Source of the DNA: Candidatus Omnitrophota bacterium | GTDB lineage: Bacteria > Omnitrophota > Gorgyraeia > Duberdicusellales > 4484-171 | Reading direction: 5' to 3' | Assembly (NCBI GenBank): GCA_003154195.1 | Contig: PMCS01000031.1 | Location: 18,054-82,053 of the forward strand | DNA length: 64,000 bases | In this document: positions 1 to 61,124 of the stretch, piece by piece | Position numbering within the stretch: position 1 is the first letter of the stretch | How the letters are laid out: each line of letters opens with the position of its first letter | The notes under the pieces: model-generated | What the model saw: only the letters and a program-made list of their open reading frames with translations | What the model was told of the DNA's origin: nothing | Database searches by the model: none | Translations under genes and position numbers: made by a program

Positions 1-212
1 GTGTACGATTCCGTCTCCACCGAAGTATTCAAAAACGAAAGCGACGTACTAGAGCTCGAATCGTAATGCTGGCCGGAAATGCTGTCGGAATCCTGCTTTA
101 ATCTTCCCTGATAACCGCGCTTGACATAAACCTGCATTACCAGCAGCGCGCACATGATTATGGCCAAAAATATCGCGTATTCCAACATGCTCTGACTGCC
201 GCGCCATCTCAT
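1..212 (-). CDS. Flp-family pilin paralog, partial (runs off the window start)
   Basis: Manual minus-strand translation from ATG at 212: MRWRGSQSMLEYAIFLAIIMCALLVMQVYVKRGYQGRLKQDSD... with no stop before position 1. It has the same class-III signal/Flp N-terminus (SQSMLEY + hydrophobic helix) as the downstream paralogs. It is absent from the ORF track because it is truncated. Confidence 0.5.
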   Translation of the reverse strand, partial: MRWRGSQSMLEYAIFLAIIMCALLVMQVYVKRGYQGRLKQDSDSISGQHYDSSSSTSLSFLNTSVETESY

Positions 213-370
213 AGAACAACCGCCTTTTTGACAAAATTACCGATATTTTCTTTTAGATGATTATGAAAATTACCCGCCCTCTTTTACCGCCCCGGATCCT
301 TATACAATATTATACCTTTTTTTGGCGCATCGGCAATATCCCTGATCAACCTTTATACCCAAGGGCACCG

Positions 371-883
371 TTAATTAGTAAAAAAATTGTCGTCGGCGAC
401 TACCGTATTGTCTATGCTATCGCCGTGAGCCGTAATGTAGTTCGCGTCCACATCATGCAGGGACGTATAATTCATCTTATTCACCTCTGCCGAAGCGCTG
501 TCAGTCCGGGAACCGGAAGTTACGGTTTGGTTGCCGCCAGTACGCGTGGTTACAGAAAAAGCATTATGAGACATAGTATCTTGTGCGTCCACTGCTACTC
601 CTGCGGCGGAGACGCCGTCCGCGTCGCCACCTATTTTGGCTATTGGACTGTTAGCATTAACGCCGGTACTCTCCGTAATCCCCGATGCTTCCGACACCAC
701 ACGTTGCTTAGTCGTTGTTTCCGTCGCGGAAAATTGTTCGCCCATCCTGCCGGCCGAATCTTTTAACTGCCCCTGGAAACCTCTCTTGACAAATACCTGC
801 ATAACCAGAATTGCCGCTACTACCACAGCGATCAACAAGGCATATTCTAAAATCGATTGCGCTTTTCTTGATTTTACCAACAT
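371..883 (-). CDS. Flp/Fap-family type IVb pilin with extended Ser/Thr-rich C-terminal domain
   Basis: ORF 371..928, trimmed to the internal Met (MLVKSRKAQSILEYALLIAVVVAAIL...). It has the Flp motif (basic leader, Q-S/G, xLEY, hydrophobic helix). An RBS GGAGGTGA lies upstream. Confidence 0.7.
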   Translation of the reverse strand: MLVKSRKAQSILEYALLIAVVVAAILVMQVFVKRGFQGQLKDSAGRMGEQFSATETTTKQRVVSEASGITESTGVNANSPIAKIGGDADGVSAAGVAVDAQDTMSHNAFSVTTRTGGNQTVTSGSRTDSASAEVNKMNYTSLHDVDANYITAHGDSIDNTVVADDNFFTN

Positions 884-1015
884 CCTTCTCACCTCCCTCA
901 ATGAGGCTTCACCGAACGCAAGTCCCACAAGGGACGCCGCGTGAGGTGGTCGCCGAATTTCCCGCCTATGGCGTGATCCCGCTTCCTTAGATATAATTAT
1001 TCAAGGAAGGCGGGA

Positions 1016-1077
1016 GACCCCGACGAGTATCGCAAAAATATCGAAGAGATTTTTGCGATAGTTTACGAGTCGGGGTA
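1016..1077 (-). promoter_or_regulatory. Two-tier conserved hairpin/palindromic motif upstream of a long Flp pilin (copy a)
   Basis: gaCCCCGACgagtATCGCAAAAATatcgaagagATTTTTGCGATagtttacgaGTCGGGGtac; it has inner 11-bp and outer 7-bp inverted repeats. Confidence 0.6.
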
Positions 1078-1108
1078 CGTTTCTCAAACATATTTTCAAT
1101 TAACGACC

Positions 1109-1215
1109 GGCCAGGGCAACGGTGATGATACCCGTATGGGTTAAGGTTATGGCTTTAAAATATTTTTTAAGCCTTAGCCTTTACCCAAACCGGCTTCTTA
1201 ACCCTAGCCTTAACC
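1109..1215. repeat. Palindromic intergenic repeat family A (TTAGGG-like arms), copy 1
   Basis: Left arm GGCCAGGGCAACGGTGATGA..., right arm ...CCAAACCGGCTTCTTAACCCTAGCCTTAACC. The arms are imperfect reverse complements. Confidence 0.65.
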
Positions 1216-1235
1216 ATTTTCACAATACCTGTCTC

Positions 1236-1691
1236 TTATAATTTGTAATCACTCACACCCAGGCTATAATCCGAGCTGGCGTTAAAATCTTCCGCCTCGA
1301 CGTTGTCGGTCTTGGACATTGACTTCACGGTTTGATTGCCGCCGGCTCTTTTCGTTACCGAATACGAACTCTTGCTCGGGTCGCCGGTAATCGTTCCTGC
1401 ATCGGTCACTCTCACCGCAGAGTCGACAAAGTTAGAAAAATTACCGTCCGTCGCTGTTTCTTCCACGATCTGCTGAACATCACCCGGAGTCATGTTGCTC
1501 GTCTGTAAAGTTTTCGTTCCGGTCGCGGAAAATTGCTCGCCCATCCTGCCGGAAGCATCTTTCAACTGCCCCTGAAAACCTCTCTTGACAAATACCTGCA
1601 TAATCAGGATTGCCGCCACCACTACGGCGATCAATAAGGCATATTCTAAGATTGACTGCGCTTTTTTTGATCTTACCAACATCCCTCTCAC
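1236..1691 (-). CDS. Flp-family pilin paralog (long form)
   Basis: MRGMLVRSKKAQSILEYALLIAVVVAAILIMQVFVKRGFQGQLKD... The N-terminal ~50 aa are near-identical to the 371..883 and 1995..2477 paralogs and the C-terminus is variable. Confidence 0.75.
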   Translation of the reverse strand: MRGMLVRSKKAQSILEYALLIAVVVAAILIMQVFVKRGFQGQLKDASGRMGEQFSATGTKTLQTSNMTPGDVQQIVEETATDGNFSNFVDSAVRVTDAGTITGDPSKSSYSVTKRAGGNQTVKSMSKTDNVEAEDFNASSDYSLGVSDYKL

Positions 1692-1757
1692 CCCCTCAAT
1701 GAGGCTTCACCGAACGCAAGTCCCACAAGGGACGCCGCGTGAGGCGGTAGCCGAATT

Positions 1758-1820
1758 GACCCCGACGAGTATCGCAAAAATATCGAAGAGATTTTTGCGA
1801 TAGTTTACGAGTCGGGGTAC
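1758..1820 (-). promoter_or_regulatory. Same hairpin motif (copy b)
   Basis: Near-identical to copy a, located upstream of 1236..1691. Confidence 0.6.
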
Positions 1821-1850
1821 GTTTCTCAAACATATTTTCAATTAACGACC

Positions 1851-1970
1851 GGCCAGGGTAACGGTGATGAGGCCGGTATGAGCTATGGTCAAGGTCATGG
1901 CTTTAAAATATTTTTTAAGCCTTAGCCATCACCTTTACCCAAACTGGCTTCTTAGCCTTAGCCTTAACCC
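1851..1970. repeat. Repeat family A, copy 2
   Basis: Same architecture; it lies between two pilin genes. Confidence 0.65.
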
Positions 1971-1994
1971 AGTATTTACAATACCGCCAACTTA

Positions 1995-2477
1995 CTAATT
2001 CATGTCGAACCTGGAATCAGGGCTATCACCGCCATTAGTGGGTCCGGTAAAATTCATTTTAAAATTTTCCTCGCTGGCCGAATCCGTGGCAGATGACGTA
2101 TTTACGCTTTGTGTGCCGCTGTCCCTGGCGCTTGCGGAATAAGCCCCCTTTTCCAAAACTCCCTCTCCGCTCACATCCCCCATAAGCCTTGGCGTATCTA
2201 TAGCCATGTTGCCGCCCCCCGCACGATCGCTAAAATTGTAATCGGTTGCCGTTTCATCTGTAACATTTTGCCCGGTACTGTTGGTGTGCTGCTTACTCGT
2301 CGAACCGCTGACAGAGAATTGCTCGCCCATCCGGTCGGAAGAGTCTTTTAACTGCCCCTGAAAACCTCTTTTGACAAATACCTGCATGATCAGGATCGCC
2401 GCCACGACCACAGCGATCAATAAAGCATATTCTAAGATTGATTGCGCTTTTTTTGATCTTACCAACATCCCTCTCAC
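1995..2477 (-). CDS. Flp-family pilin paralog (long form)
   Basis: MRGMLVRSKKAQSILEYALLIAVVVAAILIMQVFVKRGFQGQLKD..., with a variable Ser/Thr/Asn-rich C-terminus. Confidence 0.75.
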   Translation of the reverse strand: MRGMLVRSKKAQSILEYALLIAVVVAAILIMQVFVKRGFQGQLKDSSDRMGEQFSVSGSTSKQHTNSTGQNVTDETATDYNFSDRAGGGNMAIDTPRLMGDVSGEGVLEKGAYSASARDSGTQSVNTSSATDSASEENFKMNFTGPTNGGDSPDSRFDMN

Positions 2478-2491
2478 CCCCTCTTAAGAAT

Positions 2492-2611
2492 GGTTAGGGT
2501 AATGGTGATGAGGCCCGTGTGGGTTATGGTTAAGGTAAGGGCTTTAAAGAAATATTTTAAGCCCTAACCATTACCTTTACCCAAACCGGCTTCCTGGCCC
2601 TAGCCTTAACC
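2492..2611. repeat. Repeat family A, copy 3
   Basis: GGTTAGGGTAATGGTGATGAGGCCCGTGTGGGTTATGGTTAAGGTAAGGGC...GCCCTAACCATTACC...CCCTAGCCTTAACCC. Confidence 0.65.
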
Positions 2612-2643
2612 CAGTATTTATATACTGGCCTTACCCGATGAAA

Positions 2644-3084
2644 TCATTGACTCAAATTGCCCACACTGCCTAAAGTCTCTACTTCCACCGATGACGTGAT
2701 TGACGTCTGGTTCTGGATCTTTTCTTCGCCGCCGCCGCGATGCATGACGCTGGTGGAATCACTGCCGGTGATCTGGGTGTTGCGGTATTGCTGGTTGTAG
2801 ATAGAGATGTTGCTCGCAGTATCCCTTAGTCGAGATACCCCCCCTGGGGCCAAAGCATCGATAGCGTCGCCGCTAAAGTCGCTGGAAAGCGCCGACGCAC
2901 CCGCGCCATCCTCTATTCTTGCACCCACCGCAGCATGACCAAGCAAATCCACTGTCTGGGCGCCTTTTTTGCGCATCCCGGCTTTCAGCGCCGCGCCTAA
3001 GACTCCCGTGACCACCGCGATGATCAAGCCTAACGTAATCGCGTATTCCGCTGTTGACTGCGCTTTTCTTAATCTTACAAGCAT
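2644..3084 (-). CDS. Flp-family pilin paralog (long form, conserved C-terminal block)
   Basis: Trimmed to MLVRLRKAQSTAEYAITLGLIIAVVTGVLGAALKAGMRKKGAQTV. The C-terminal ~55 aa (NISIYNQQYRNTQI...VGNL) are shared with the 3844 and 4546 paralogs. Confidence 0.75.
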   Translation of the reverse strand: MLVRLRKAQSTAEYAITLGLIIAVVTGVLGAALKAGMRKKGAQTVDLLGHAAVGARIEDGAGASALSSDFSGDAIDALAPGGVSRLRDTASNISIYNQQYRNTQITGSDSTSVMHRGGGEEKIQNQTSITSSVEVETLGSVGNLSQ

Positions 3085-3187
3085 TATTGTCACCCCCTCA
3101 ATGAACACATTATTTTTTCCCCGCCCCAAGGCGGGACTCCGCTTACACTTCGCAAGCTGAAAGCGCAGAAAAAATAATAGTGTGAAT

Positions 3188-3250
3188 TGATCCCGACGAG
3201 TATCGCAAAAATATCAAAGAGATTTTTGCGATAGTTTACGAGTCGGGATA
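3188..3250 (-). promoter_or_regulatory. Same hairpin motif (copy c)
   Basis: gatCCCGACgagtATCGCAAAAATatcaaagagATTTTTGCGAT...GTCGGGatac, located upstream of 2644..3084. Confidence 0.6.
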
Positions 3251-3310
3251 CATTCAATTACATTTTCAATGAACCGCCACCGACTGAAGTCGATGGTTTT
3301 GGCATAAAAC

Positions 3311-3505
3311 TTACATACCGAAAACCCCCGCGGTCGCGTTATTGGCAGTTTTATTCATCGCCCCGATTACTTTGCTGTAAGTAGAGTTAACCGCCGACTG
3401 GAAACCGCCGGTACGAAACAAAATTACCATGATTACCGCGATAATCGCCGCTAAAAACAAGGTATATTCCAAAACTCCCTGCGCTTTTCTAAACCTTTTC
3501 ATCAT
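3311..3505 (-). CDS. Flp-family pilin, short (64 aa) canonical form
   Basis: MMKRFRKAQGVLEYTLFLAAIIAVIMVILF... This is the classic Flp G-VLEY motif, with the short length typical of Flp. Confidence 0.75.
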   Translation of the reverse strand: MMKRFRKAQGVLEYTLFLAAIIAVIMVILFRTGGFQSAVNSTYSKVIGAMNKTANNATAGVFGM

Positions 3506-3527
3506 TCTCCCCCCCCTTCTTTAAAAT

Positions 3528-3642
3528 GGCCAGGCAACGGTAATGATGCCCGTATGGGCTATGGCTAAGGTCGTGACTGTGAATTCGTATCAACCCTGAC
3601 CATTGCCTTAACCCAAACCGGCTTCCTAGCCCTAACCTTAAC
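3528..3642. repeat. Repeat family A, copy 4
   Basis: Same arms; the central part differs. Confidence 0.6.
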
Positions 3643-3843
3643 CAATCATTATTAAGGTATATTTTCACTCAGCCCCCGCTCCAGGGTAACAACAAACATC
3701 TTATCTTCTGGTTGCTTAAAGTTACAAAAGAATTATGTTTTTATGAAGGTAACCTTAAGCAATTTTCCGTAACTTGGGTAATCTTAAGTAACTTTTACCT
3801 TAAATCCCTGCCGGCTTCTTAACGCCGCCCTTAGCCGATGAAA

Positions 3844-4248
3844 TCATTGAGTCAAGTTGCCCACACTGCCTAAAGTCTCTACTTCCACCGATGACGTGCT
3901 TGATGTCTGGTTCTGGATCTTTTCTTCGCCGCCGCCGCGATGCATGACGCTGGTGGAATCACTGGCGCTGATCTGGGTGTTACGGTACTGCTGGTTGTAG
4001 ATAGAGATGTTGCCGGCGGAGGAGCTTAAAACAACGCCTCCCGAGTCGCCTACCGAGCTTACCGCAATACCAGTACCATCTTCCTTCTCCACCCCGGAAC
4101 CCCCCAACAACTCCACTGTCTGGGCGCCTTTTTTGCGCATCCCGGCTTTCAGGGCCGCGCCTAAGACTCCCGTGACCACCGCGATGATCAAGCCTAAGGT
4201 AATCGCGTATTCCGCTGTTGACTGCGCTTTTCTTAACCTTACCAACAT
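3844..4248 (-). CDS. Flp-family pilin paralog (long form)
   Basis: Trimmed to MLVRLRKAQSTAEY.... The N- and C-terminal blocks are near-identical at nucleotide level to 2644..3084 and 4546..4959, with a divergent middle. Confidence 0.75.
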   Translation of the reverse strand: MLVRLRKAQSTAEYAITLGLIIAVVTGVLGAALKAGMRKKGAQTVELLGGSGVEKEDGTGIAVSSVGDSGGVVLSSSAGNISIYNQQYRNTQISASDSTSVMHRGGGEEKIQNQTSSTSSVEVETLGSVGNLTQ

Positions 4249-4320
4249 CCTTCTCACCCCCTCAATGAGACTTGGCCGAGCGCGCATGCTGCGCATGTGC
4301 AGCGAGGCCGTAGTCGAATT

Positions 4321-4383
4321 GACTCCGGCGAATGTCCTAAAAATATCGAAGAGATTTTCAGGACGGCTTATGAGCCGGAGTAC
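4321..4383 (-). promoter_or_regulatory. Same hairpin motif with compensatory substitutions (copy d)
   Basis: gaCTCCGGCgaatGTCCTAAAAATatcgaagagATTTTCAGGACggcttatgaGCCGGAGtac. Both stems are changed but base pairing is preserved. Confidence 0.6.
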
Positions 4384-4392
4384 ATTAAAAAT

Positions 4393-4540
4393 GGCCAGGG
4401 TAATGGTAATGAGGCCCGTATGGGTTATGGTTAAGGCTGTAAATTCGTATCAGCCCTGACCCTTGCCTTAGCCTAAACCGGCTTCTTAACCCTAACCTTA
4501 ACCTTTTTTCAATACGGGCTTCCTAGCCCTAACCTTAACC
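4393..4540. repeat. Repeat family A, copy 5 (with duplicated right arm)
   Basis: The right arm ...CCTAACCTTAACC occurs twice in tandem. Confidence 0.6.
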
Positions 4541-4545
4541 AATCA

Positions 4546-4959
4546 TCACTCGGTCAAGCAGCCCACACTGCCTAAAGTCTCTACTTCCACCGATGACGTG
4601 CTTGATGTCTGGTTCTGGATCTTTTCTTCGCCGCCGCCGCGATGCATGACGCTGGTGGAATCACTGCCGGTGATCTGGGTGTTACGGTACTGCTGGTTGT
4701 AGATAGAGATGTTGCCGCCGCCGGCTAAATGAATGCCGTTGGTGTTAGTGTCGAGGCCCTCAGCGAGCGCTCGATCGCCGCTATCATCGCCGGTAGCGGC
4801 ATCTTTAAGCAAATCCACTGTCTGGGCGCCTTTTTTGCGCATCCCGGCTTTCAGGGCCGCGCCTAAGACTCCCGTGACCACTGCGATGATCAAGCCTAAA
4901 GTGATCGCGTATTCCGCTGTTGACTGTGCTTTTCTTAACCTTACCAACATCCTTCTCAC
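4546..4959 (-). CDS. Flp-family pilin paralog (long form)
   Basis: MRRMLVRLRKAQSTAEYAITLGLIIAVVTGVLGAALKAGMRKKGAQTVDLL..., with a conserved C-terminal block. Confidence 0.75.
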   Translation of the reverse strand: MRRMLVRLRKAQSTAEYAITLGLIIAVVTGVLGAALKAGMRKKGAQTVDLLKDAATGDDSGDRALAEGLDTNTNGIHLAGGGNISIYNQQYRNTQITGSDSTSVMHRGGGEEKIQNQTSSTSSVEVETLGSVGCLTE

Positions 4960-5020
4960 CCCCTCAATGAGCGCATTATTTTTGAAGCGTTACTATGCTT
5001 CAAAAATAATAGCGCGAATT

Positions 5021-5083
5021 GACCCCGGCGAATGTTCAAAAATTATCGAAGAGAATTTTTGAACGGCTTATGAGCCGGGGTAC
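5021..5083 (-). promoter_or_regulatory. Same hairpin motif with compensatory substitutions (copy e)
   Basis: gaCCCCGGCgaatGTTCAAAAATtatcgaagagaATTTTTGAACggcttatgaGCCGGGGtac. Confidence 0.6.
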
Positions 5084-5113
5084 GTTTCTCAAACATATTC
5101 TCAACTAACGACC

Positions 5114-5322
5114 GGCCCGGGCAATGGTAATGCTCTCCTTCGCTCTTCGAGCTTCGGAGAAGTCTCGCCGAAACCTAGCCATCAAATATGGCTAGGTTTC
5201 GCCTATAAGGCGAACTTCAGCGAAGGCGGAATGCCGGTATGGGTTATGGTTAAGGCTGTAAATTCGTATCAGCCCTGACCCTCGCCTTAGCCTAAACCGG
5301 CTTCTTAACCCTAACCTTAACC
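5114..5322. repeat. Repeat family A, copy 6 with nested GC-rich insertion
   Basis: A inserted module ctccttcgctcttcgagcttcggagaagtctcgccgaa plus a perfect hairpin acctagccatcaaatatggctaggt sits inside the A element. Confidence 0.6.
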
Positions 5323-5363
5323 GAACATTATCCCAATGAACCCCCGTTCATCTGCTGCAAAAC

Positions 5364-5558
5364 TTATTGCGAGAAAACTTCCTTAGTCATCTTATCGGTA
5401 GTATTCCCCATCGCCCCTATTACCTTGCCGTAAGTGGCGTCAAGCGATGTCTGCAAGCCGCCCCTACGGAATAAAATAACCATGGTTACCGCGATAATCG
5501 CCGCTAAAAATAAGGTATATTCCAAAACTCCCTGCGCTTTTCTTAATCTTACCAGCAT
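5364..5558 (-). CDS. Flp-family pilin, short (64 aa)
   Basis: MLVRLRKAQGVLEYTLFLAAIIAVTMVILF..., a paralog of 3311..3505. Confidence 0.75.
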   Translation of the reverse strand: MLVRLRKAQGVLEYTLFLAAIIAVTMVILFRRGGLQTSLDATYGKVIGAMGNTTDKMTKEVFSQ

Positions 5559-5569
5559 CCTTCTCCCCT

Positions 5570-5719
5570 TTATTTCTTATACTCCAACTGCTCCTGGATC
5601 TGTTTTAACTTAGCATTCATCGACCGGGTGATGTATTTATGGGCTATCATCATTGCCGCCATAATCACCACAATCAACATCGCGTAATCCAGCATGCCTT
5701 GCGCTTTTGTTTTTTTCAT
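5570..5719 (-). CDS. Flp-like pilin, divergent short form
   Basis: ORF 5570..5803 trimmed to MKKTKAQGMLDYAMLIVVIMAAMMIAHKY.... Its start codon overlaps the stop of the upstream gene (ATGA). Confidence 0.55.
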   Translation of the reverse strand: MKKTKAQGMLDYAMLIVVIMAAMMIAHKYITRSMNAKLKQIQEQLEYKK

Positions 5720-5943
5720 AATTTTTTGTTCGGATCGGCGTTGTATTTGGGCACATCCATGGTATTGGTAATAAAATATTTTGACGTTCGGAAATGATTC
5801 CATAATTTTTGCTTGATTAAGTCGTTAAACTTACTGCCGGCGGCGACAAACATTATCACCATCAAAGCAGTGAGAATAATATATTCAAGCATGCTCTGGC
5901 TGCGCCGCAATACCGGTAATCCTGAATCAATTATTTTGGCCAT
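5716..5943 (-). CDS. Flp-like pilin, divergent form
   Basis: ORF 5716..6057 trimmed to MAKIIDSGLPVLRRSQSMLEYIILTALMVIMFVAAG.... It has the SQSMLEY motif and a hydrophobic helix. Confidence 0.5.
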   Translation of the reverse strand: MAKIIDSGLPVLRRSQSMLEYIILTALMVIMFVAAGSKFNDLIKQKLWNHFRTSKYFITNTMDVPKYNADPNKKL

Positions 5944-6310
5944 AGTCGCCGTAGTAAACCCCGTTAGAGGACTTTGTTCCTTCACCCCGATAGGAAATTC
6001 TTTTCTAACGAGGCAAGCGGCGCCGGCAAAAAAACAAAACTCTATACCTCCAGACATGGATATAGCTACCCCTTCTCTCCGCTTGCCGGAGCCTGCCCCT
6101 TAGCTGCCTCCCCTACCATCATAAATATACCACAATCACTACGTTGAATTCAAGCTAATAAATGCGAAATTGAAATGATTTTGAAACCGTTTCCAATAAT
6201 ACTATTTTAACCCGGAAAATACCTTCCGCCAGCATTTTATTTATACGCGTTTGCCTTGAGTTATGTTACAAACGCCGTGCTTACCCCCCAAAATACGGGC
6301 ATTTTTCCGG

Positions 6311-7753
6311 TTAAAGAAGAAAAATTCTCTTATTATCCAAATAAAATCCTTCTTTATTAAAAGCATCTTTGAGGGTGCGGGAAATATCTTTTACGATTAT
6401 CTTATAAAAGTTCTTGCCGACGGCCAGGTAACCGGCCGCGTCGGGCGACGATGCCGCCGTCGGTACCGGCGGCGCCGGCATTTTGCGGTTGAACGCGGCG
6501 GCTAAAATATTTTTAATCTCGATAAAATCCTCCGCTTTAGCGAGGGGAATTTTTTTCGCCGGCATTGGGTAATCGGCGATCCCGGGCGCCGGGCTGCCTT
6601 TAAAAAAATTTTCAAATATTTCCAGGTCATCCGGGAATTTTTTTTCCGGAAACGGCCAGAAATATAAATAGTTGCCCAGTAAAGGCAGAAAATCTTTCCG
6701 GTCCGTCATAAAACACCATACGGGAAGGGCCTTTTTCTTGCGAAAAACCGGAATATTATTGACGATAATACCCCGGCTGTCTTTATCCCGGGAGAACCTG
6801 GCTAAAGCGGAAGCGTAAAAAAAATCCTGCCCCGCCGGAGAAGGTATTTTTTTAATTCTTGTTTGCCGGCTTAAATAAGCGGCACCCTGGGATAAAAATC
6901 TGGGATGATAACCGACAAAAAAAGAAGTTTTGACGGGCGCGGGAAAAGATATTTTTTCCCACGCTTCGCCGGCAGGGCTGAGGAATTCTATTTCTTTTAC
7001 GCCCTTCGTCAAGCCGTTTAAAAAATCCAAAGCTAAGGGCGAAAGATAACCGAAACTTTTCGTATAATTTACCAGAACGGCCTTTGCCGAAAGCATCCGG
7101 GTGATGATTTCTTTCGCCCGCGTTAACGGTGCGCTAAAATTTCCCATCGGGCAATCGCCCCGCCAAAACGTCGTCATCGCGGCGTCGCAATAAGAAACCG
7201 CGCCGCCCTCAAAATAAAATTTTATCGTCCTTGTTTCTTTGCGGGTTTCTTTAAATCCCGCTAAATCTAATTGGAGGTTTGCCGCCGGCAGGGTTTTTAA
7301 AAATTCGTTTATTTTGCCCAGGGACAGATGGCCAAGCCCGGCTGCCCGTAAGAATCCCCGGGCCGCGATATTTTCTTTCAGGCCCAGAGCGGGAACCCGG
7401 AAAACCAGTAAACCGGTGATCTTGCGCAGGAGGTCTTCCTCGAACTGAGGGAAAAACGGCTTGAGGGAAGAAACTGCGTAATCAATAAGGCCGAACTTTG
7501 AATCGAAGCCGCGCAGGAGGAGGGGAAAACAATCATAGTTTTCCCCTTTTTTATAAAGGGTAATCGATTTTTTGCGCCCCTTCCTTTCTTTTACGCCGCG
7601 AGAAGAAAAAATATTCTGGATTGAACTTTTGGAGAGCTTGATCTTGTGTTTTTCGTCTAAAAACCGGGACAACGCCCTTACCCCCAGATAAGGGTTTTTC
7701 TTTCTTGCGCTGATGATTAAACTACGCACCCGCGGATTTATCTTGGCCCGCAC
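6311..7753 (-). CDS. Hypothetical 480-aa protein with N-terminal helix-turn-helix-like segment
   Basis: The N-terminus NPYLGVRALSRFLDEKHKIKLSKSSIQNIF looks HTH-like and the rest is unrecognised. It sits between the tad ATPase and the pilin array. Domain fold and function are not assignable from sequence alone. Confidence 0.3.
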   Translation of the reverse strand: MRAKINPRVRSLIISARKKNPYLGVRALSRFLDEKHKIKLSKSSIQNIFSSRGVKERKGRKKSITLYKKGENYDCFPLLLRGFDSKFGLIDYAVSSLKPFFPQFEEDLLRKITGLLVFRVPALGLKENIAARGFLRAAGLGHLSLGKINEFLKTLPAANLQLDLAGFKETRKETRTIKFYFEGGAVSYCDAAMTTFWRGDCPMGNFSAPLTRAKEIITRMLSAKAVLVNYTKSFGYLSPLALDFLNGLTKGVKEIEFLSPAGEAWEKISFPAPVKTSFFVGYHPRFLSQGAAYLSRQTRIKKIPSPAGQDFFYASALARFSRDKDSRGIIVNNIPVFRKKKALPVWCFMTDRKDFLPLLGNYLYFWPFPEKKFPDDLEIFENFFKGSPAPGIADYPMPAKKIPLAKAEDFIEIKNILAAAFNRKMPAPPVPTAASSPDAAGYLAVGKNFYKIIVKDISRTLKDAFNKEGFYLDNKRIFLL

Positions 7754-7808
7754 AGTTCCTCCCGCTTAACCCAAATAATCATTGTATTTATTGAATTTAT
7801 TCGTGTTA

Positions 7809-7869
7809 TTTGTGCAATTCGTTGTTAAAAATATTTTAACAACGCATATCGCAATTTACAGAAATTTTT
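7809..7869. promoter_or_regulatory. Motif family F (near-palindromic GTTGTTAAAA-N-TTTTAACAAC) upstream of 6311..7753
   Basis: atttGTGCAATTCGTTGTTAAAAATATTTTAACAACGCATATCGCAATTTACAgaaatttt. Confidence 0.45.
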
Positions 7870-7968
7870 ACACTATATTATACCAAAAACTTGCGCGAGT
7901 GGTTGAAATATTAACAGTGGTGTTTTCCGGGGATAGGGAGGCCTGATTTTTCCGGTCCGCCGGAAAAA

Positions 7969-10137
7969 TTAGACCTTGAAGATGTCTTCCGAAAGCAGGA
8001 TGCCCTGCATTTTCATGTCCGGGAAAAAGCTGGGGATATAACCGGTGGGCTTAAACTCGCCGATGATGCTGCCGTCTTTATCCACGCCGGATTGGACAAA
8101 AGAAAAAATGTCTTTTAAGCCGACGTGCATCTCGTCCACCATGCCGGTGATCTCGGTAATCGCCAAAACCCTTCTTGTGCCGTCGCTTAAGCGCGCCGTA
8201 TGGACGATAAGGTCGAGCGCCGAAGCAATCATCTCGCGGATGGCGCGGATCGGCAATTCCACGCCGCTCATTAAAATCATGGAGTCAAGCCTGATTAACA
8301 CGTCGTGGGTGGAGTTGGCGTGCAGCGTAGACATACTGCCGTCATGGCCGGTATTCATCGCCTGCAACATATCCAGCGCCTCGATGCTGCGGCATTCGCC
8401 GACGATAATCCGGTCGGGCCTCATACGCAGGGTATTGCGAAAAAGCTCCCTGATCGTAACGGCGCCTTTGCCCTCGATATTCGGCGGCTTGGATTCCAGG
8501 CGTATCCAATGATCCTGGTCGAGTTTCAATTCCGCCGAATCCTCGATCGTGATGATACGTTCGCGGTCGGGAATGAACAAAGAAAGAATATTAAGAAAAG
8601 TCGTTTTACCGCTTCCCGTTCCCCCGGAAACCATAATGTTTTTTCTCCCCACCACGCAGGCTTTTAAAAAATCGGCCATGCTGTTACTCAGCGACTTAAG
8701 GCCGACCAGTTCTTTGATGGAAAAACGTTCTTTGCGAAACTTTCGGATGGTAAGCGAAGGCCCGGTTAAAGCCAGAGGCGGGATAATCGCGTTAACGCGG
8801 GAACCGTCCGGCAAGCGCGCGTCCACATAAGGCGACGACTCGTCGATCCTCCTGCCTAACGGCGCCAGAATCCGCTCGATGACGATCTTTACCTGTTCGT
8901 CGGTGGTAAAATGCTTATCGGTAAGAGTAATTTTTCCGGCACGCTCGATATACACCTGGTCTTTATTATTGACCATGACTTCGGTAATGGTCGCGTCCCT
9001 CAATAAATCTTCCAGCGGCCCCAGGCCCAGAGCTTCGTCGATGATTTCTTTGATGATTTGTCTTCGCATTTCCAACGAGGCGGCGATGCCGTCGATTTCC
9101 CTGGTCAGAATATTGCTTAAAATTTTTTCCGCCTGTTCTTTCAGCTTATGCATTTGCTCCACGTCGGTAGTAAGCGTATCGAGCGGCAGCCGCTTGAGGT
9201 TCATTTCCTCGATCAGCTTAAGATGCGCCCGTTTTTTAAGTTTTATCACGTTATCGGTTTCTTTATCGATTTTAACCTTCTCATTCTTCTGCTCGGACAT
9301 GCCCAGATCAGTCCAGAAATCTACCTTGGGTTTTTGCGCCATCTCATCGCCCCTGACAACCATCTCGGCCAGGCTCTTTTGAAACACAAAAATATCTTCC
9401 CGGGTGGCTAAAAGAACAGCCAAGGCGTCGATTGCGGAAGTAATTTTGCTGTCGGGGGTATCGATGATAATAGGGATCCCCATATTCAAGGCGAGGCCGG
9501 CGGCTTTTCCGTCGGAAGGGACCTGGGAAATAATATCGATCGGCAAAAGCGCTTTTATTTCCGAAGAACTTACGCCGCCTTTACTCTCAAAACGGTTTAA
9601 AATACCTTTTACCATGGAAAGAGGAAAAGTCATTATTTCCAAAGCTTCGAGGGTTAATTCGGTCTGATACAGGGAAAGGACATCGGGGTTTATCACCAGC
9701 AAAATAAGGTTTGATTTATCAAAAATATTTACGGTAATATCGCTGATATTTTTTCCGCCGTCGATAATAATAAAATCGTATTCCAGGGCTTTAAAAAAAC
9801 CCAGGGCTTCGGCTACGTTGGCGGCGGTAAGCGAACCGGCCGAACGCAAGCTTAAAATCGACGGCAAAAAATCAAGAAAAGGATTTATCGCGATTAAAAA
9901 GTTTCCCTTTAACAGTTCCTTGTTGTCTTTAATCGCGCTCCAGTCATGGATTATATCTACCAGCGAAGCCTTGGGCTTAAGATTGCACATCTTGGACATA
10001 TCAAAAGGCGCGCCAAAATCCATCTCCAAAAGCAGGACTTTTTTATTTTTCCGGGAAAGGCTTATGGCCGTATTAAGCGCCAGCGTAGTTTTACCTACGC
10101 CGCCTTTTGTGCTGAAAAAAGTTATCGTCTTAGTCAT
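7969..10137 (-). CDS. Fused ParA/MinD-like (TadZ/CpaE-like) ATPase domain + CpaF/TadA secretion ATPase
   Basis: N-terminus MTKTITFFSTKGGVGKTTLALNTA has the deviant Walker A of ParA/MinD/CpaE. The C-terminal ~450 aa have the VirB11/CpaF signature (MVSGGTGSGKTTFLN, IEDSAELKL, ECRSIEALDMLQAMNTGHDGSMSTLHANS). Confidence 0.8.
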   Translation of the reverse strand: MTKTITFFSTKGGVGKTTLALNTAISLSRKNKKVLLLEMDFGAPFDMSKMCNLKPKASLVDIIHDWSAIKDNKELLKGNFLIAINPFLDFLPSILSLRSAGSLTAANVAEALGFFKALEYDFIIIDGGKNISDITVNIFDKSNLILLVINPDVLSLYQTELTLEALEIMTFPLSMVKGILNRFESKGGVSSSEIKALLPIDIISQVPSDGKAAGLALNMGIPIIIDTPDSKITSAIDALAVLLATREDIFVFQKSLAEMVVRGDEMAQKPKVDFWTDLGMSEQKNEKVKIDKETDNVIKLKKRAHLKLIEEMNLKRLPLDTLTTDVEQMHKLKEQAEKILSNILTREIDGIAASLEMRRQIIKEIIDEALGLGPLEDLLRDATITEVMVNNKDQVYIERAGKITLTDKHFTTDEQVKIVIERILAPLGRRIDESSPYVDARLPDGSRVNAIIPPLALTGPSLTIRKFRKERFSIKELVGLKSLSNSMADFLKACVVGRKNIMVSGGTGSGKTTFLNILSLFIPDRERIITIEDSAELKLDQDHWIRLESKPPNIEGKGAVTIRELFRNTLRMRPDRIIVGECRSIEALDMLQAMNTGHDGSMSTLHANSTHDVLIRLDSMILMSGVELPIRAIREMIASALDLIVHTARLSDGTRRVLAITEITGMVDEMHVGLKDIFSFVQSGVDKDGSIIGEFKPTGYIPSFFPDMKMQGILLSEDIFKV

Positions 10138-10227: not shown

Positions 10228-11817
10228 TTATTTCCTTTCGCGGTAAACAATGGGAATATCGATTCTTAATTCTTTAAGTTCAACCTGCGCCGGGAAAGGA
10301 GGATAAACAAGCTTCTGCACCAGCCTGAGCGCGGCCTCGTCAAATACCTTATACCCCGATGTCTGCGCCACATAGGCGTCTTTTAATTGGCCGACATCGT
10401 CAAGGATGAGTTTGACCAAAACGTTTCCCTGCCAGCCGGTATTTACCAGTTCGAGGGGATAACTGATATTATCGGTAATCTTTTTTTGAATCGCTAAAGC
10501 GTAATCCTGAAGCTCAAAAGGAATGCTTCTCATTGTTTCCATAGCGTCGGACTCTTTCTCTTCTTTTTTAATTTCTTTAGCCGGGGCGGCTTGTTTTTCT
10601 CCGGCTTTTTCCATACCCGCCGAATAAACAATCCTGGGCGTTAGGGTGATATAGAACTCCGCGTCGTTGTTAAAGGGCATGCTTTTATGCCGGAAGAATG
10701 CGCCTAAAATAGGCGTATCCGACAGCCAGGGAAACTTGGCGATAGCTTCCTCTGTTTTCTTTCTGATTAAACCGCCGATGGCGATGGTTTCGCCGTCGGC
10801 CATATAAATTTGCGTGGAAACACTGCGGTTAAGCGTCGGGTAGGCCTTGGCCGTAGTCGAAGAGCCGCTGCTGATCGATTCCGCCGCCTCGAGGTCGGTA
10901 ACCGATATCTTCAACATCACGTTTATTTTGCCCTTTTTATCCACCACCGGGCTGATTGAAAGATTTATGCCGTAAGGTTTATATTCAACGGTCGTACCGG
11001 CGCCGCCGCCAATTGAAGTAATATTGGTATTAAAAATCGGTTTTTCTCCGCCTACCGTGATCTCCGCGGTTTTACCGCTTTGACAGGTCACCCGGGGCCG
11101 GGAAAGGATTCTCGCCTTACCTTCGGTTTCTAAAAGATCGAGCGAGTAACTAAAGCTGTCGCCGGAACGGCCATATTGTCCCAACTTATAAAATTCTGCG
11201 AAATGGCCCAGGGAATTCCTATCCGTGGGCAAAGTTTCACCGATACCGGTGTTGCTCGGGAAATTAAAACCGAGGCTGCGGGTAGCATCGTGGCTCAGCT
11301 CCAGCACTTCCACGGCGATCTCGATCAAAACATCTTCATCCGCCTCCACGATAAAATCCCCGATTTTAGCCTTATAAGCCGCTAAAATAGCCATTAATTT
11401 TTCTTTTTCCTGTTTCTTAAGTTCGCCGAAAAGAAAAACTTTATCCTCGCTGTCCATCGCCTTTACGGTAATCGCGTCCATGCCCAATTCCTTCAAAACT
11501 TTCTCGATTTTATTTTTAAGCGCGGTCATTTCTTCCGCGTAAACTTTTACGTCAAAATTATGTTCACCGAAAGCGTCCCACCATTGAAGCTTTGCCTCCC
11601 CCTTGGCTTTCGCGACCAGCACCAGTTCTTTCTCGCTGGCGGAAACTACGTCCAGGATTTCCGGTCTGCTTACCGAAATCCTTTGGGGATTGTTGACCGG
11701 TATCACCTGCGTATCGCCCACATAAAAAATAAGAGCGGAAAGATCGTAGCGATCTGCGGCAGGCAGCGATAAAGGCGACATCAAACAGGCAGTAAGAAAA
11801 ATAATTATCGTTTTCAT
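10228..11817 (-). CDS. Tad secretin (CpaC/RcpA-like) with C-terminal TonB_C-like domain
   Basis: Signal peptide, then the secretin core (GETIAIGGLIRKK...FPWLSDTPILGAFFRHKS...FYITLTPRIV). This is followed by ~110 aa matching the TonB C-terminal fold pattern (ISYPLELVNTGWQGNVLVKLILDDVGQL...SGYKVFDEAALRLVQKLVYPPFP). Confidence 0.75.
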   Translation of the reverse strand: MKTIIIFLTACLMSPLSLPAADRYDLSALIFYVGDTQVIPVNNPQRISVSRPEILDVVSASEKELVLVAKAKGEAKLQWWDAFGEHNFDVKVYAEEMTALKNKIEKVLKELGMDAITVKAMDSEDKVFLFGELKKQEKEKLMAILAAYKAKIGDFIVEADEDVLIEIAVEVLELSHDATRSLGFNFPSNTGIGETLPTDRNSLGHFAEFYKLGQYGRSGDSFSYSLDLLETEGKARILSRPRVTCQSGKTAEITVGGEKPIFNTNITSIGGGAGTTVEYKPYGINLSISPVVDKKGKINVMLKISVTDLEAAESISSGSSTTAKAYPTLNRSVSTQIYMADGETIAIGGLIRKKTEEAIAKFPWLSDTPILGAFFRHKSMPFNNDAEFYITLTPRIVYSAGMEKAGEKQAAPAKEIKKEEKESDAMETMRSIPFELQDYALAIQKKITDNISYPLELVNTGWQGNVLVKLILDDVGQLKDAYVAQTSGYKVFDEAALRLVQKLVYPPFPAQVELKELRIDIPIVYRERK

Positions 11818-12908
11818 CTTTTAATCGGCGTCCGGCTTGGCGCTTCTGCTACCGGCGGCAGCTTATCTTCAGGAGGCTGCGGCTGATCGGTAACATTCAT
11901 TGAATCGACGTGTGACCCTCTTTGAATTTGTATTTTCCGGGGTTCCTTTTTTTTCATCATGGGAGACACCAAGGATTGCTTTTTCCTGGTGTCTTTCGGT
12001 TCAAAAGGCATAATACTCTCCAAGTACTGCATCAGCGTATCCCAGTTAGCCGGCGGCATCGCTTGAACCTTGGCGTCGGTAGGCGAACGTAAGGCAATCT
12101 GGATTACGCCCTGGGTCATCACAAAAGCAAGAAGATTAGCCTCATTGGGCGCTAAAGCCAGAGTGACAAAAGACGGGGTACCTTGCGATGATTCCGAGGG
12201 GGATTTTTTTTGGACCTTGTTGACGAGTTCTCCGAAAACATTTTTCTTTTCTTTGGGTTTACCGAGATAATCGTCGCCTACCGCCAGGATTAAAACATTT
12301 TGAAACAAGGGAACGGTAAGGATGCGGCCATTCGGCTGCGGCGGCTGCTGCGGCGCTTGCTGTTTTGTGCCCTGCTTCTTTTCTTCATTCTTTTCTTCCT
12401 TCTCCTCCGGCGGCAAAGGAACCATCATCGTAGCAATGATATCGATATAATCTCCGGGTTTAACCATACCGGCTAGGCTCTGCATATTTTCCGCCTTAAT
12501 CGGCACCGCCCGCTTACCGGCAGGCGTGATCTTGGAAAGAGTAACTTCCATCGGCTCATCCGGCAGGATCGCCGGGCCGATTTTATTGGTAGTAATCGGC
12601 TCGTCTTTAGAAATATTCACCAAAGCGCGCTTCCCGGCAACCGCCTCAATGGCCAGAATCGCGTTGGGCGGAATAAATTGTTGGGGGAAAACACGCAGAT
12701 CCAGCGCGCGCGGAGAGATTTCGCCGCCCGAGGGGATTGCTTCTTTTGCTACGATGACCGGCACAAGCGTTTTATATTGTTCGGAAAAAGCCTGTTTCAA
12801 TTCAAGGGAAATTTTTTCCCGCTCCTTGCTCAAATAAGAATGGAGCAAGAAAACGGCAACGCCGCTTAATGCCAGGCCGATGACGATAAAGATAACTTTT
12901 CTCAGCAT
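11814..12908 (-). CDS. Flp pilus assembly protein CpaB/RcpC-like
   Basis: N-terminal TM anchor and a SAF-like domain. It has PGDYIDIIAT and TVPLFQNVLILAVGDD motifs typical of CpaB. It overlaps the secretin gene by 4 nt. Confidence 0.7.
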   Translation of the reverse strand: MLRKVIFIVIGLALSGVAVFLLHSYLSKEREKISLELKQAFSEQYKTLVPVIVAKEAIPSGGEISPRALDLRVFPQQFIPPNAILAIEAVAGKRALVNISKDEPITTNKIGPAILPDEPMEVTLSKITPAGKRAVPIKAENMQSLAGMVKPGDYIDIIATMMVPLPPEEKEEKNEEKKQGTKQQAPQQPPQPNGRILTVPLFQNVLILAVGDDYLGKPKEKKNVFGELVNKVQKKSPSESSQGTPSFVTLALAPNEANLLAFVMTQGVIQIALRSPTDAKVQAMPPANWDTLMQYLESIMPFEPKDTRKKQSLVSPMMKKKEPRKIQIQRGSHVDSMNVTDQPQPPEDKLPPVAEAPSRTPIKR

Positions 12909-15327: not shown

Positions 15328-15478
15328 CACCCTAACCATTGCCTTAACCCAAACCGGCTTTCCGCCTTCGCCAAGGCTTCGGCAAGATTTCTCCGAAGCT
15401 CGAAGAGCGAAGGAGAACTTCGGCGAGACTTCTCCGAAGCTCGAAGAGCGAAGGAGAGCGTAACCCTGACCTTAACCC
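15328..15478. repeat. Repeat family A partial copy with the same inserted module duplicated
   Basis: accctaaccattgccttaacccaaaccggc..., then two tandem copies of cttctccgaagctcgaagagcgaaggaga, then ccctgaccttaaccc. Confidence 0.55.
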
Positions 15479-21841: not shown

Positions 21842-21858
21842 AAGGAATTTTTTTATTT

Positions 21859-22422
21859 TCAGCTTCTCGGAGTAACCAGATAATTGACGCTGAACGTTTC
21901 TTTGGTAACCGGATTGCCGACTGTAACATTCATACCGATCATAGAAATATTGCTGATATTACCCGCAATACCAGCGGTAATATCATAACCGGTATTATTA
22001 TAATACCGGAAAGAAAAATTAGCCAGTTCCGCGAGAAGAATATTTGACGACTCAAATGTTCCGTCGCTGGCGCTGTCGATTTCATAATAAAGGCGCTTAT
22101 TGGCCGGAATAGACAGGCCATCGTAGCGATACCTATTGGTAGCGCTTCCCACAGTATACGCAATCATGGTAGCGTTTGTGGTACTCTGGATTGCCGACGC
22201 CGACAAAGAAATACCGCGCAGATCGCGCGCCATCCGCAGCACTGCCATACGGGCGTCATTGACGATGTCGCTTCTAAAAGTAGTAAAATTCCACACGTCC
22301 ATCGCCTGTTTTATAAAAGAGCCGAGCCCCACGCATAAGACTCCCACAATCACAATTACCGTCACCAGTTCGATTAAAGTAACGGATTTTTTAGAATATT
22401 TGAGAAATGTTAAAATTTTCAT
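21859..22422 (-). CDS. Type IV minor pilin (PilW-like), prepilin N-terminus
   Basis: KKSVTLIELVTVIVIVGVLCVGL is a prepilin-type N-terminal helix with Glu at +5. Confidence 0.65.
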   Translation of the reverse strand: MKILTFLKYSKKSVTLIELVTVIVIVGVLCVGLGSFIKQAMDVWNFTTFRSDIVNDARMAVLRMARDLRGISLSASAIQSTTNATMIAYTVGSATNRYRYDGLSIPANKRLYYEIDSASDGTFESSNILLAELANFSFRYYNNTGYDITAGIAGNISNISMIGMNVTVGNPVTKETFSVNYLVTPRS

Positions 22423-22433
22423 TGAAGTATAGT

Positions 22434-22901
22434 TTAAAATATCGTAAACAACACCGCCTTACTGCCGGATTTAGATACCGTGACATTTACCATTTTGTAA
22501 AGATCGGCGGCATTATCAGTAGTATTCCATTGGTTCACGGAAACATTGCAATAACGCACAACCACGCTCTTGGTAAAACCATCGCTGGCGTTGGCCGTTT
22601 TCTGGCGATACTCAGTTACATTAGTAGTCACGTTGCTGTAGTTGTCCCATCCGGGCAAAAACTGGGAAAACCGTGAATAATTACTTATGTTAGAATACCC
22701 CTGGGTGATTACGCTTTCCATCACTTGTTCGGCGGAAAAAGCCGCGCTTACTTCATTTTCGCTGAATCTCACCCGGCGCGTGGTTTCGCTTAAAAAACTC
22801 ATCAGGGTGGAAACGGCTATCCCCATCACGATGATTATCGCAACGAGTTCCATCAGGGTAACGGACTTGTGCAAAGATTTTAGAAATTTTAGTTTTTTCA
22901 T
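22434..22901 (-). CDS. Type IV minor pilin (PilV-like)
   Basis: ORF 22434..22985 trimmed to MKKLKFLKSLHKSVTLMELVAIIIVMGIAV.... It has the prepilin N-terminal helix. Confidence 0.6.
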   Translation of the reverse strand: MKKLKFLKSLHKSVTLMELVAIIIVMGIAVSTLMSFLSETTRRVRFSENEVSAAFSAEQVMESVITQGYSNISNYSRFSQFLPGWDNYSNVTTNVTEYRQKTANASDGFTKSVVVRYCNVSVNQWNTTDNAADLYKMVNVTVSKSGSKAVLFTIF

Positions 22902-23095
22902 TGACCACGCATATTTTGTTATACTGTAGGGGCCGACCCCTGTGCTCGCCTTGCCGAGCCATCGACTTCGCCGATATGCGAGCAAGGCGAGGCAGGTCGG
23001 CCCGCTATAATTTATTTATTAGCAATCAGCAAACATCCTTTCTCGCCTTGAATTTAACATATTTCCCAAAGATAAAAAAAAGTAATTATCTATCT

Positions 23096-23140
23096 GCGAT
23101 CATCAGCTTCTTCTCATCGGTGATCATCTGCATTTTACCG
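23096..23140. repeat. Short repeat family D (TCTTCTCATC-GTGATCATCTG)
   Basis: gatcatcagcttcttctcatcggtgatcatctg; second copy at 52240-52290. Confidence 0.4.
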
Positions 23141-23659: not shown

Positions 23660-23728
23660 CTTTGTGGGGTAGTTTACACTGCAAAATAAAAACGTAAATT
23701 TAATTATTTTTTGCCGCGCAAAAAATAA

Positions 23729-35066: not shown

Positions 35067-35124
35067 AGTATCTCCAAGAAAAAGTAGAGAGTAGAGAGGG
35101 CAGAGTAGAGAGATACTTTAAAAT

Positions 35125-35241
35125 GGTTAGGGTAAGGGTAAGGATGCCAGTATAGGTTAGGGTTAAGGTACGGGCTAAAAATTGGTTTGAACCCTAACCA
35201 TTACCATAACCCAAACCGGCTTCCTAACCCTAGCCTTAGCC
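35125..35241. repeat. Repeat family A, copy 8
   Basis: GGTTAGGGTAAGGGTAAGG...GGTTAGGGTTAAGG...CCCTAACCATTACCATAACCCAAACCGGCTTCCTAACCCTAGCCTTAGCC. Confidence 0.65.
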
Positions 35242-35272
35242 GATTAAAACATTTATCTCTACTTTCTACTCG

Positions 35273-61069: not shown

Positions 61070-61124
61070 ATTTTGCTCCTTATTTTTTTACTGCGTAAAA
61101 AAATAATATCATCCGCTGCGTCCC

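Follow-up and report, generated by a model that had tools for sequence, protein, structure and literature searches.

Does a row of pilin-like genes with nearly identical ends and dissimilar centres represent a system of surface variation, or is it a set of structural pilins? This question is raised by positions 1-6057 of a 64,000-nucleotide (nt) stretch of contig PMCS01000031.1 (hereafter the window), which originates from a peat metagenome-assembled genome (MAG) of an Omnitrophota bacterium. In our opinion this region is probably a Tad-like (type IVc) pilin block, in which one class of pilins (class 6) would have been diversified by duplication and intra-array exchange into alternative subunits.

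A six-frame motif scan of the whole window, combined with a listing of open reading frames (ORFs) and inspection of start codons, identified exactly 11 Flp-like pilin genes, all located within positions 1-6057. The initial annotation had counted at least 12 on one strand; the common orientation was confirmed, but the number was not. The genes are as follows:

g01, 1..212, minus strand: Flp-like pilin cut by the window edge, MRWRGSQSMLEYAIFLAII..., related to class 7
g02, 371..883, minus strand: class-7 long pilin, 170 amino acids (aa), triplet A
g03, 1236..1682, minus strand: class-7 long pilin, 148 aa, triplet A
g04, 1995..2468, minus strand: class-7 long pilin, 157 aa, triplet A
g05, 2644..3084, minus strand: class-6 pilin, 146 aa, mosaic triplet B
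g06, 3311..3505, minus strand: class-5 short pilin of canonical length (63/64 aa), paralogue of g09
g07, 3844..4248, minus strand: class-6 pilin, 134 aa, mosaic triplet B
g08, 4546..4950, minus strand: class-6 pilin, 134 aa, mosaic triplet B
g09, 5364..5558, minus strand: class-5 short pilin, 64 aa
g10, 5570..5719, minus strand: class-2 very short pilin, 49 aa (orthologues 47-59 aa)
g11, 5716..6057, minus strand: class 1, first pilin of the array, start uncertain

The full length of g01 (110 aa) was obtained from contig L001 (10672-11004), which carries the same locus and extends the view 10 kb past the window start. Two start codons are available for g11, ATG at 6057 (113 aa) and ATG at 5943 (75 aa). 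The upstream ATG by which g10 had been read as a 77-aa pilin is not supported by orthologues or gene callers, leaving a protein of 49 aa. Short products are encoded by four genes (49-75 aa, or 113 aa with the g11 start at 6057). The other seven are long (110-170 aa), with C-terminal tails of 60-130 residues rich in Ser, Thr, Asn and Gly; such tails had been recognized before, albeit in eight genes. A purine-rich, GGAGG-like ribosome-binding site (RBS) precedes the starts of g02-g09 by 5-12 nt. No RBS was found for g10, whose start overlaps the stop of g11 by 4 nt (ATGA), which suggests translational coupling. Thus, of the earlier statement that every copy has its own start and RBS, the part on starts and complete genes holds throughout and the part on the RBS holds for g02-g09 but not for g10. 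A consensus scan for promoters and terminators placed a promoter-like site 5′ of g11 and others inside the spacer hairpins described below, a result that is not decisive, and detected no intrinsic terminators in the array. Screening of positions 1-8000 against Rfam gave only chance sub-threshold matches, mostly to eukaryotic microRNA and long non-coding RNA families.

The evidence for exchange comes from g05, g07 and g08 (triplet B), each of which can be divided into three blocks:

g05, minus strand: 5′ block 2942-3084; hypervariable centre 2815-2941 (127 nt); 3′ block 2644-2814
g07, minus strand: 5′ block 4106-4248; centre 4015-4105 (91 nt); 3′ block 3844-4014
g08, minus strand: 5′ block 4808-4950; centre 4717-4807 (91 nt); 3′ block 4546-4716

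The first ~143 coding nt (~188 nt counting the RBS region, repeat D3) and the last 171 nt are 93-100% identical among the three genes, while the centres (91-127 nt) share at most 50% identity, contain indels and are unalignable. Alignment thus revealed true block structure rather than uniform divergence, as the initial annotation had described for the genes beginning at 2644, 3844 and 4546. Synonymous divergence (dS) within the end blocks amounts to only 0.06-0.22, and for this reason point mutation since duplication cannot explain the scrambled centre. The 26 informative sites of the conserved blocks form 10 runs (permutation p = 0.002). The pair of copies that agrees switches repeatedly along these blocks, and no single tree fits them, a pattern characteristic of several exchange tracts. 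The low dS of the ends, the unalignable centre and the clustering of incompatible sites bear out the recombination or gene conversion previously proposed for this triplet. A further junction was found in g09, the first 27 nt of which (5532-5558) differ by one base from those of g05 (3058-3084) and encode the class-6 leader MLVRLRKAQ, unlike the leader of its paralogue g06 (MMKRFRKAQ). As judged from this comparison, the mosaic junction of g09 lies exactly at the predicted cleavage site.

The same arrangement occurs in a different species with the same flanking synteny (locus L036), whose array has the order c1, c2, c5, c5, B, A, B, A. Its class-6 pair is ~95% identical in the 5′ block, ~30% in the centre and 97-100% in the 3′ block, and another contig (P0006) carries a third centre with the same ends. 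The class-7 pair of L036 is 99.5% identical over 189 nt and then diverges abruptly. Taken at the level of sequence, the class-6 mosaic appears genuine and recurrent, and is best explained by duplication plus gene conversion.

Triplet A (g02, g03 and g04) shares its N-terminal ~52 codons (156 nt) at 86-93% nt identity, and the C-termini diverge except for one island, R-x-G-G-N-Q-T-V. This agrees with the earlier description of a shared N-terminal part and divergent C-termini in the genes at 371, 1236 and 1995. Gene conversion had also been invoked for these genes, but in the shared 156 nt dS is 0.5-0.8 and nonsynonymous divergence (dN) 0.02-0.04, which fits purifying selection on older duplicates. 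The three genes look like such older duplicates with a strongly constrained helix, for which conversion is an unnecessary assumption.

Flp-type prepilins are recognized by a processing site G/xxxxEY, i.e. Glu at +5 and Tyr at +6, ahead of a hydrophobic helix. All 11 genes encode a basic leader, A/G-Q-S/G, x-x-E/D-Y and then ~20 hydrophobic residues, with correct spacing of the E/D-Y pair in 11 of 11. The -1 residue is Ala or Gly, and the +1 residue is invariably Gln, which is atypical for Flp. In 66 Omnitrophota N-termini this Gln forms the sole invariant column, and the Tyr is at least 90% conserved. Gln at +1 after [KR][GA] is the Epd-type signature, present here as a sequence motif, with cleavage itself predicted. 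The Pfam thresholds are 32.2 bits for Flp_Fap (PF04964) and 23.7 bits for PF04021 (Class_IIIsignal), and no window pilin reaches any curated Pfam or NCBIfam threshold: the best PF04964 scores were 15.9 bits for a full-length protein (E = 0.012) and 18.8 bits for a trimmed N-terminus, and with PF04021 g06 and g09 scored ~10 bits (E ~ 0.9). Weak matches nevertheless recur among the 66 N-termini of Omnitrophota relatives, to PF04964 in 13 (best E = 1.2e-4) and to PF04021 in 16 (best E = 4e-5), and no other Pfam family recurs meaningfully. A profile of these N-termini matches only three PDB sequences, all at E = 0.2-0.7: the Flp pilins 8u2b and 8u1k, whose EY motif aligns in register, and one archaeal flagellin. 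Database entries of the relatives bear the names ‘class III signal peptide-containing protein’, ‘UPF0333 family’ and rarely ‘Flp’; PF04021 is precomputed for 7 of the top 120 relatives and is the only Pfam match precomputed among them.

Because the curated models are not reached, the Gln is invariant and the public annotations are of PF04021 type, we assign these genes to the type IV filament pilin superfamily, where they represent Tad-associated pilins with a predicted Epd-type leader, outside Pfam Flp_Fap. By its +1 Gln and the public annotations, this putative leader is linked as closely to EppA-dependent pilins of archaea as to Flp. The original assignment to Flp-family pilins is therefore retained in so far as it meant type IV filament pilins in a tad locus, but not as membership of Flp_Fap (18.8 versus 32.2 bits); the profile check proposed with it fell below threshold, yet the weak recurring Flp_Fap and Class_IIIsignal matches point to the pilin superfamily.

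The encoded proteins could alternatively be cargo or surface-anchored proteins with class III signals (similar to archaeal bindosome proteins or type II secretion system (T2SS) substrates), which use the peptidase and the Tad machine without being filament subunits. The failure to reach a curated pilin model and the long Ser/Thr/Asn-rich tails, unusual for Flp, would suit such proteins, as would a ~2-fold enrichment of N-x-S/T sequons: the tails of g01-g09 (window 1-5558) contain 24, compared with 11.8 ± 2.9 in shuffled sequences (p ~ 0.0005), counts that are partly non-independent, since paralogues share sites and some sites (NIS, NQT) are conserved within a class. The excess hints at N-glycosylation, as in archaeal pilins. 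Nevertheless, Glu at +5, Tyr at +6 and a 20-residue hydrophobic helix are typical of polymerizing pilins, and the short classes (49-64 aa) have the canonical Flp size; the predicted mature products of g06, g09, g10 and g11 measure 43-60 aa, compared with ~45-60 aa expected of short mature pilins, a size that the seven genes of 110-170 aa exceed. Furthermore, the PDB matches of the profile are exclusively filament subunits and the locus also encodes TadE/F/G-like minor pilins. We consider the cargo explanation quite improbable.

Assignment of the array to a Tad system is based on its neighbourhood. In the direction of transcription, it lies directly downstream of the following genes:

11814..12908, minus strand: RcpC/CpaB pilus assembly protein (PF16976)
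10228..11817, minus strand: RcpA/CpaC-type secretin with C-terminal TonB_C (PF00263)
7969..10137, minus strand: TadZ-like ParA/MinD domain fused to TadA/CpaF ATPase, 722 aa (PF00437)
6311..7753, minus strand: conserved 480-aa protein with a weak helix-turn-helix (HTH)-like N-terminus and no Pfam match, between tadZA and the pilins

One locus thus unites the TadA/CpaF ATPase, TadZ, the RcpA secretin and RcpC. Relatives of the TadZ-TadA ATPase are all from Omnitrophota MAGs (52-59% identity). The complete order is a peptidyl-prolyl isomerase gene, rcpC, rcpA, tadZ-tadA, the 480-aa HTH-like gene, the pilin array, a TadE/F-like gene and a TadG-like gene, and the synteny of the Tad genes is the same in the related loci L024, L034 and L036. 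Minor pilins of the TadE/TadF/TadG type are encoded just beyond the window. There, L001 carries, in order, the rest of g01, a 128-aa pilin-like gene, a 369-aa TadE/F-like gene (N-terminus SQAVVELAIFG), a gene for a 1059-aa Cys-rich protein, a TadG-like gene (517 aa, PF13400 match at E = 3.9e-7) and one more Flp-like gene of 75 aa.

Three components of this neighbourhood deserve separate mention. The fusion of the secretin with TonB_C was also found in L024, L034 and L036 and appears to be a conserved Omnitrophota feature. The 480-aa protein (6311-7753) is conserved at the same place in distant Omnitrophota (25% identity to a 528-aa protein of L024) and could be a regulator of the locus. The 1059-aa protein (L001 12674-15853, ~1.8-5.0 kb beyond window position 1) is extremely Cys-rich, has a pilin-like N-terminus (KKSQGVLQFALTF...) and no Pfam match; its gene, which has a 582-aa counterpart in L034, sits between the TadE/F-like and TadG-like genes, and the product could be a pilus-tip adhesin.

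Tandem pilin genes are not peculiar to the window. Every related Omnitrophota tad locus with enough downstream flank carries 5-11 of them after tadZA, so the high copy number, which had been taken as unusual for tad loci, is typical of the phylum. Best-hit analysis distinguished about seven recurrent pilin classes in conserved order across loci. Those described by size and sequence are:

class 2 (g10): ~50 aa, ending ...RHLNQELNE-like
class 5 (g06, g09): 60-70 aa, KAQSILEYIIVLSAII
class 6 (g05, g07, g08): ~100-135 aa, KAQSTAEYAI
class 7 (g02-g04, with g01 related): ~105-150 aa, KAQSxLEYALLI...MQxxxKRGxQG

Among 1.84 billion proteins, a class-7 profile retrieved 3,257 cluster representatives (E ≤ 1e-3), ~40 of them full-length with the long tail; 734 of its hits had E ≤ 1e-10. 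For class 6, 5.8 billion proteins contained only 14 relatives. In two classes, then, the long C-terminal tails are conserved among orthologues (~40 and ~14 relatives). In an hhalign comparison of classes 6 and 7, homology extended over the first 40 residues only and did not demonstrate a common C-terminal domain. The relative L034 has one gene each of classes 2, 5, 6 and 7, which indicates that the window lineage triplicated classes 6 and 7 and duplicated class 5. Most members of the array are probably distinct structural pilins, minor or major, rather than variation cassettes. In the literature searched, Tad machine genes have been reported for Omnitrophota, and such pilin arrays have not.

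These data are compatible with the following scheme. The prepilins would carry a class III signal, be cut after [KR][AG] to leave Gln at +1, Glu/Asp at +5 and Tyr at +6, and assemble with the N-terminal hydrophobic helix as the filament core. The basal set most likely comprised one major pilin, perhaps the canonical-size class 5, and several minor pilins. In the window lineage, tandem duplication would then have amplified class 5 (two copies), class 6 (three) and class 7 (three), and homologous exchange within class 6, by gene conversion or unequal crossing-over, would keep the helix-coding 5′ block and the 3′ block uniform. In type IV pilins the segment right after the helix faces outward. 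The 30-48-codon segment at this place, which is unrelated between the class-6 copies, would by this general architecture be exposed. Classes 6 and 7 would probably provide interchangeable subunits with different surfaces for the same machine, either co-expressed or alternatively expressed, and these surfaces could confer different attachment specificities or evasion of phages or grazers.

Several observations weigh against this account, the sub-threshold profile scores among them. Neither TadB/TadC nor a prepilin peptidase (TadV/CpaA, Peptidase_A24) was found among the ORFs scanned in the 64-kb window and the adjoining 10 kb. The homologous locus L034 closes with two T2SSF (TadB/C) genes, and the peptidase may be encoded elsewhere in the genome or be common to the type IVa pilus (T4aP)-like system at 57-62 kb. 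AlphaFold2 models of g07 and g03 (from alignments of 15 and 20 sequences) are confident for the N-terminal helix only, with a mean predicted local distance difference test score (pLDDT) of ~52 and values below 50 outside the helix, which is why exposure of the centre is deduced from general pilin architecture. The centre is rich in Gly, Ser, Ala and Asp, and could be a fast-evolving disordered linker without an adaptive role. Four further metagenome contigs that cover several of the genes also show the array at 99.9-100% identity, and a search of 5.8 billion public proteins yielded no centres with these ends beyond the three known. The remaining point concerns a shortened contig, which is considered below with the assembly.

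The low-complexity centre leads to a second explanation, in which the array is a purely structural pilin set whose recent duplicates are neutral and whose linker drifts quickly with no selection for surface variation. Conservation of the classes and their order throughout the phylum agrees with it, as do the invariance of the array across samples, the low-confidence models of the tails and the simple composition of the centre, whose length among orthologues ranges over 19-48 aa (19-30 aa in single-copy and 34-48 aa in multi-copy species). However, neutral drift cannot produce an unalignable centre while synonymous sites of the flanks differ by only 6-22%. Moreover, the same pattern of conserved ends and replaced centres came about in another species whose gene order differs, and in the copies the ORFs are intact and the RBS is kept. 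A purely structural set thus seems to us possible but rather unlikely.

The invariance of the array also bears on programmed variation, whether by silent cassettes of the pilE/pilS type, a diversity-generating retroelement (DGR) or an invertase shufflon. Conserved blocks around a variable segment do resemble mini-cassettes. On the other hand, searching the window and the L001 tail by tblastn with the conserved blocks and the centres detected complete genes only, without promoterless or 5′-truncated copies, in accordance with the earlier view that these are complete genes rather than silent cassettes. No reverse transcriptase, second copy of any centre (i.e. template repeat) or site-specific recombinase was identified among the window ORFs scanned, and the genes are all co-oriented. 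The only inverted repeats in the array are palindromic spacer elements, and none of the repeats forms the boundaries of an inverted segment. The array is near-identical across metagenomes and the public proteins contain only three centres, so diversification is not ongoing at an observable rate; the cassette shuffling for which a comparison with other metagenome contigs had been recommended left no sign. Sequence comparison thus gives no indication of programmed or rapid ongoing variation, which we regard as highly improbable.

Arrays of near-identical repeats of 140-190 nt are difficult for short-read assemblers, and strain alleles of one gene might have been joined into a false tandem array. 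Contig L006 (JGI 3300050009) lacks one 702-bp unit: at 1114-1518 it carries a g08/g07 chimera, matching window 4553/4018, with the crossover inside a ~100-nt stretch in which g07 and g08 are identical. Two origins are conceivable: natural unequal crossing-over, which would be evidence that recombination takes place in the array, or an assembly collapse, which is the remaining point against diversification by exchange. An artefact is, however, scarcely credible for the array as a whole. An exact-protein look-up found the same locus in six other assemblies, among them the NCBI MAG GCA_003154645.1 and a scaffold from Stordalen Mire. Over 10.9 kb, two independent assemblies match the window without a single difference (100% identity). 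Three shorter contigs reach 99.95-100% identity wherever they overlap the array, one of them with one mismatch over 5.1 kb. In addition, every copy has its own diagnostic single nucleotide polymorphisms and distinct flanking spacers.

Two families of hairpin repeats were distinguished in the spacers of the array:

1011..1081, 1753-1823, 3184-3254, 4316-4386 and 5016-5086, no strand: palindromic hairpin repeat U; related copy at 61110-61180
1855..1978, 1107-1224, 2496-2620, 3531-3652, 4397-4512 and 5233-5331, no strand: long imperfect hairpin repeat D, with GGTTAAGG/GGTTAGGG motifs

Repeat U (~60 nt) lies 65-130 nt upstream of five pilin genes and belongs to no Rfam family. Its consensus fold has 23 pairs, 11 of which show compensatory double changes between copies. 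As the related copy lies outside the array, U looks like a dispersed element similar to repetitive extragenic palindromes or miniature inverted-repeat transposable elements, not a pilin-specific regulator. Repeat D (110-130 nt) follows most pilin genes, is absent from the tightly packed arrays of L034 and L036, and has copies outside the array, between housekeeping genes (35116-35244 and 15330-15465). The D elements may supply homology for duplication or loss of units, or act as mRNA-end structures. A role of the spacer hairpins as pilin-specific regulatory RNAs was ruled out by the copies elsewhere in the window and the absence from related arrays. A small plus-strand ORF across U/D was also discarded, since one copy contains an in-frame stop and the compensatory changes fit a hairpin better.

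Outside the Tad locus, the window contains a second type IV filament system (57224-62202, T4aP/T2SS-like), with an N_methyl pilin, a PilB/GspE-type ATPase with MshEN and a secretin. A cluster of large pilin-like proteins with PilX_N and GspH matches is encoded at 19103-25669.

The locus shares features with several known systems. The Flp pilins (PF04964), such as Flp-1 of Aggregatibacter and PilA of Caulobacter, are likewise made as small prepilins in which a basic leader precedes Glu at +5, Tyr at +6 and a hydrophobic helix, and their loci also include RcpC, the RcpA secretin, TadZ/TadA and TadE/F/G-like genes. The window pilins differ in scoring below the PF04964 threshold, in the invariant Gln at +1, in their number (11-13 genes per locus, compared with the 1-3 copies given as usual in the initial annotation), in the 60-130-residue tails of seven genes, and in being encoded after tadZA instead of at the operon head.

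Archaeal Epd/class III pilins (PF04021, UPF0333) have in common with them [KR][AG] before Gln(+1), small pilins encoded side by side and frequent N-x-S/T; the processing sites of EpdA-E (RAQI, KGQV/L/I) are those of archaeal EppA substrates (PMC4371748, Table 1), and an Epd-like archaeal system has been proposed as the ancestor of Tad (PMC6668835). Here, by contrast, the host is a bacterium that encodes a secretin, RcpC and TadG, the E-Y pair corresponds to that of Flp, and the PF04021 score is ~10 bits. The best functional analogue proposed for triplets A and B is the PilA1-PilA6 set of Haloferax volcanii, several complete, expressed pilin genes with a near-identical N-terminal hydrophobic domain and different exposed parts. 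These proteins share an H-domain, each is able to be the major pilin, and adhesion differs among them (PMC4371748). The Haloferax genes, unlike the tandem genes of the window, are scattered; they are archaeal and PibD-dependent, lack a conserved C-terminal block, and have not been reported to show a mosaic or gene conversion.

The pilE/pilS system of Neisseria resembles the window in its conserved segments around variable mini-cassettes and in homologous exchange between copies. In Neisseria, promoterless truncated silent copies donate to one expression locus at high frequency; the copies described here are complete, silent ones were not found in the window or L001, and the array is stable across samples. 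As the closest bacterial parallel we would suggest the Tad system of Bdellovibrio bacteriovorus, likewise a bacterium attaching to other cells, with flp1-flp4, a tadZA fusion, no dedicated TadV and processing of Flp1 by PilD (bioRxiv 10.64898/2026.07.08.737194). Its four paralogues are dispersed, with no reported mosaic of conserved ends, as opposed to a tandem array of 11-13.

The Omnitrophota, uncultured bacteria of ultra-small size, are suspected to attach to other cells or to prey on them. Few organelles have been named as candidates for contact with their hosts; the Tad pilus is among these, and the system is expressed in V. archaeovorus, a predator of this phylum (PMC10066038). Their tad loci regularly encode 5-11 distinct pilins with predicted EppA-type leaders, and in at least two species particular classes have been amplified into mosaics of conserved ends and a variable loop. 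A broader reading is speculative and, taken as a whole, distinctly unlikely: Omnitrophota Tad pili would be heteropolymers of about seven pilin classes, assembled on a secretin machine from Epd-type subunits (+1 Gln, possibly glycosylated), and so a living intermediate of the proposed archaea-to-bacteria transfer of Tad. Within this same speculation, two of the classes would serve in some lineages as a standing subunit library, with ends homogenized by gene conversion and exposed loops kept different to recognize different host or prey surfaces. At the level of the genes, the locus is a clean natural case of concerted evolution limited to part of a small gene. The unique centre peptides are concrete targets in existing peatland metatranscriptomes and metaproteomes, and may offer a handle on host specificity.

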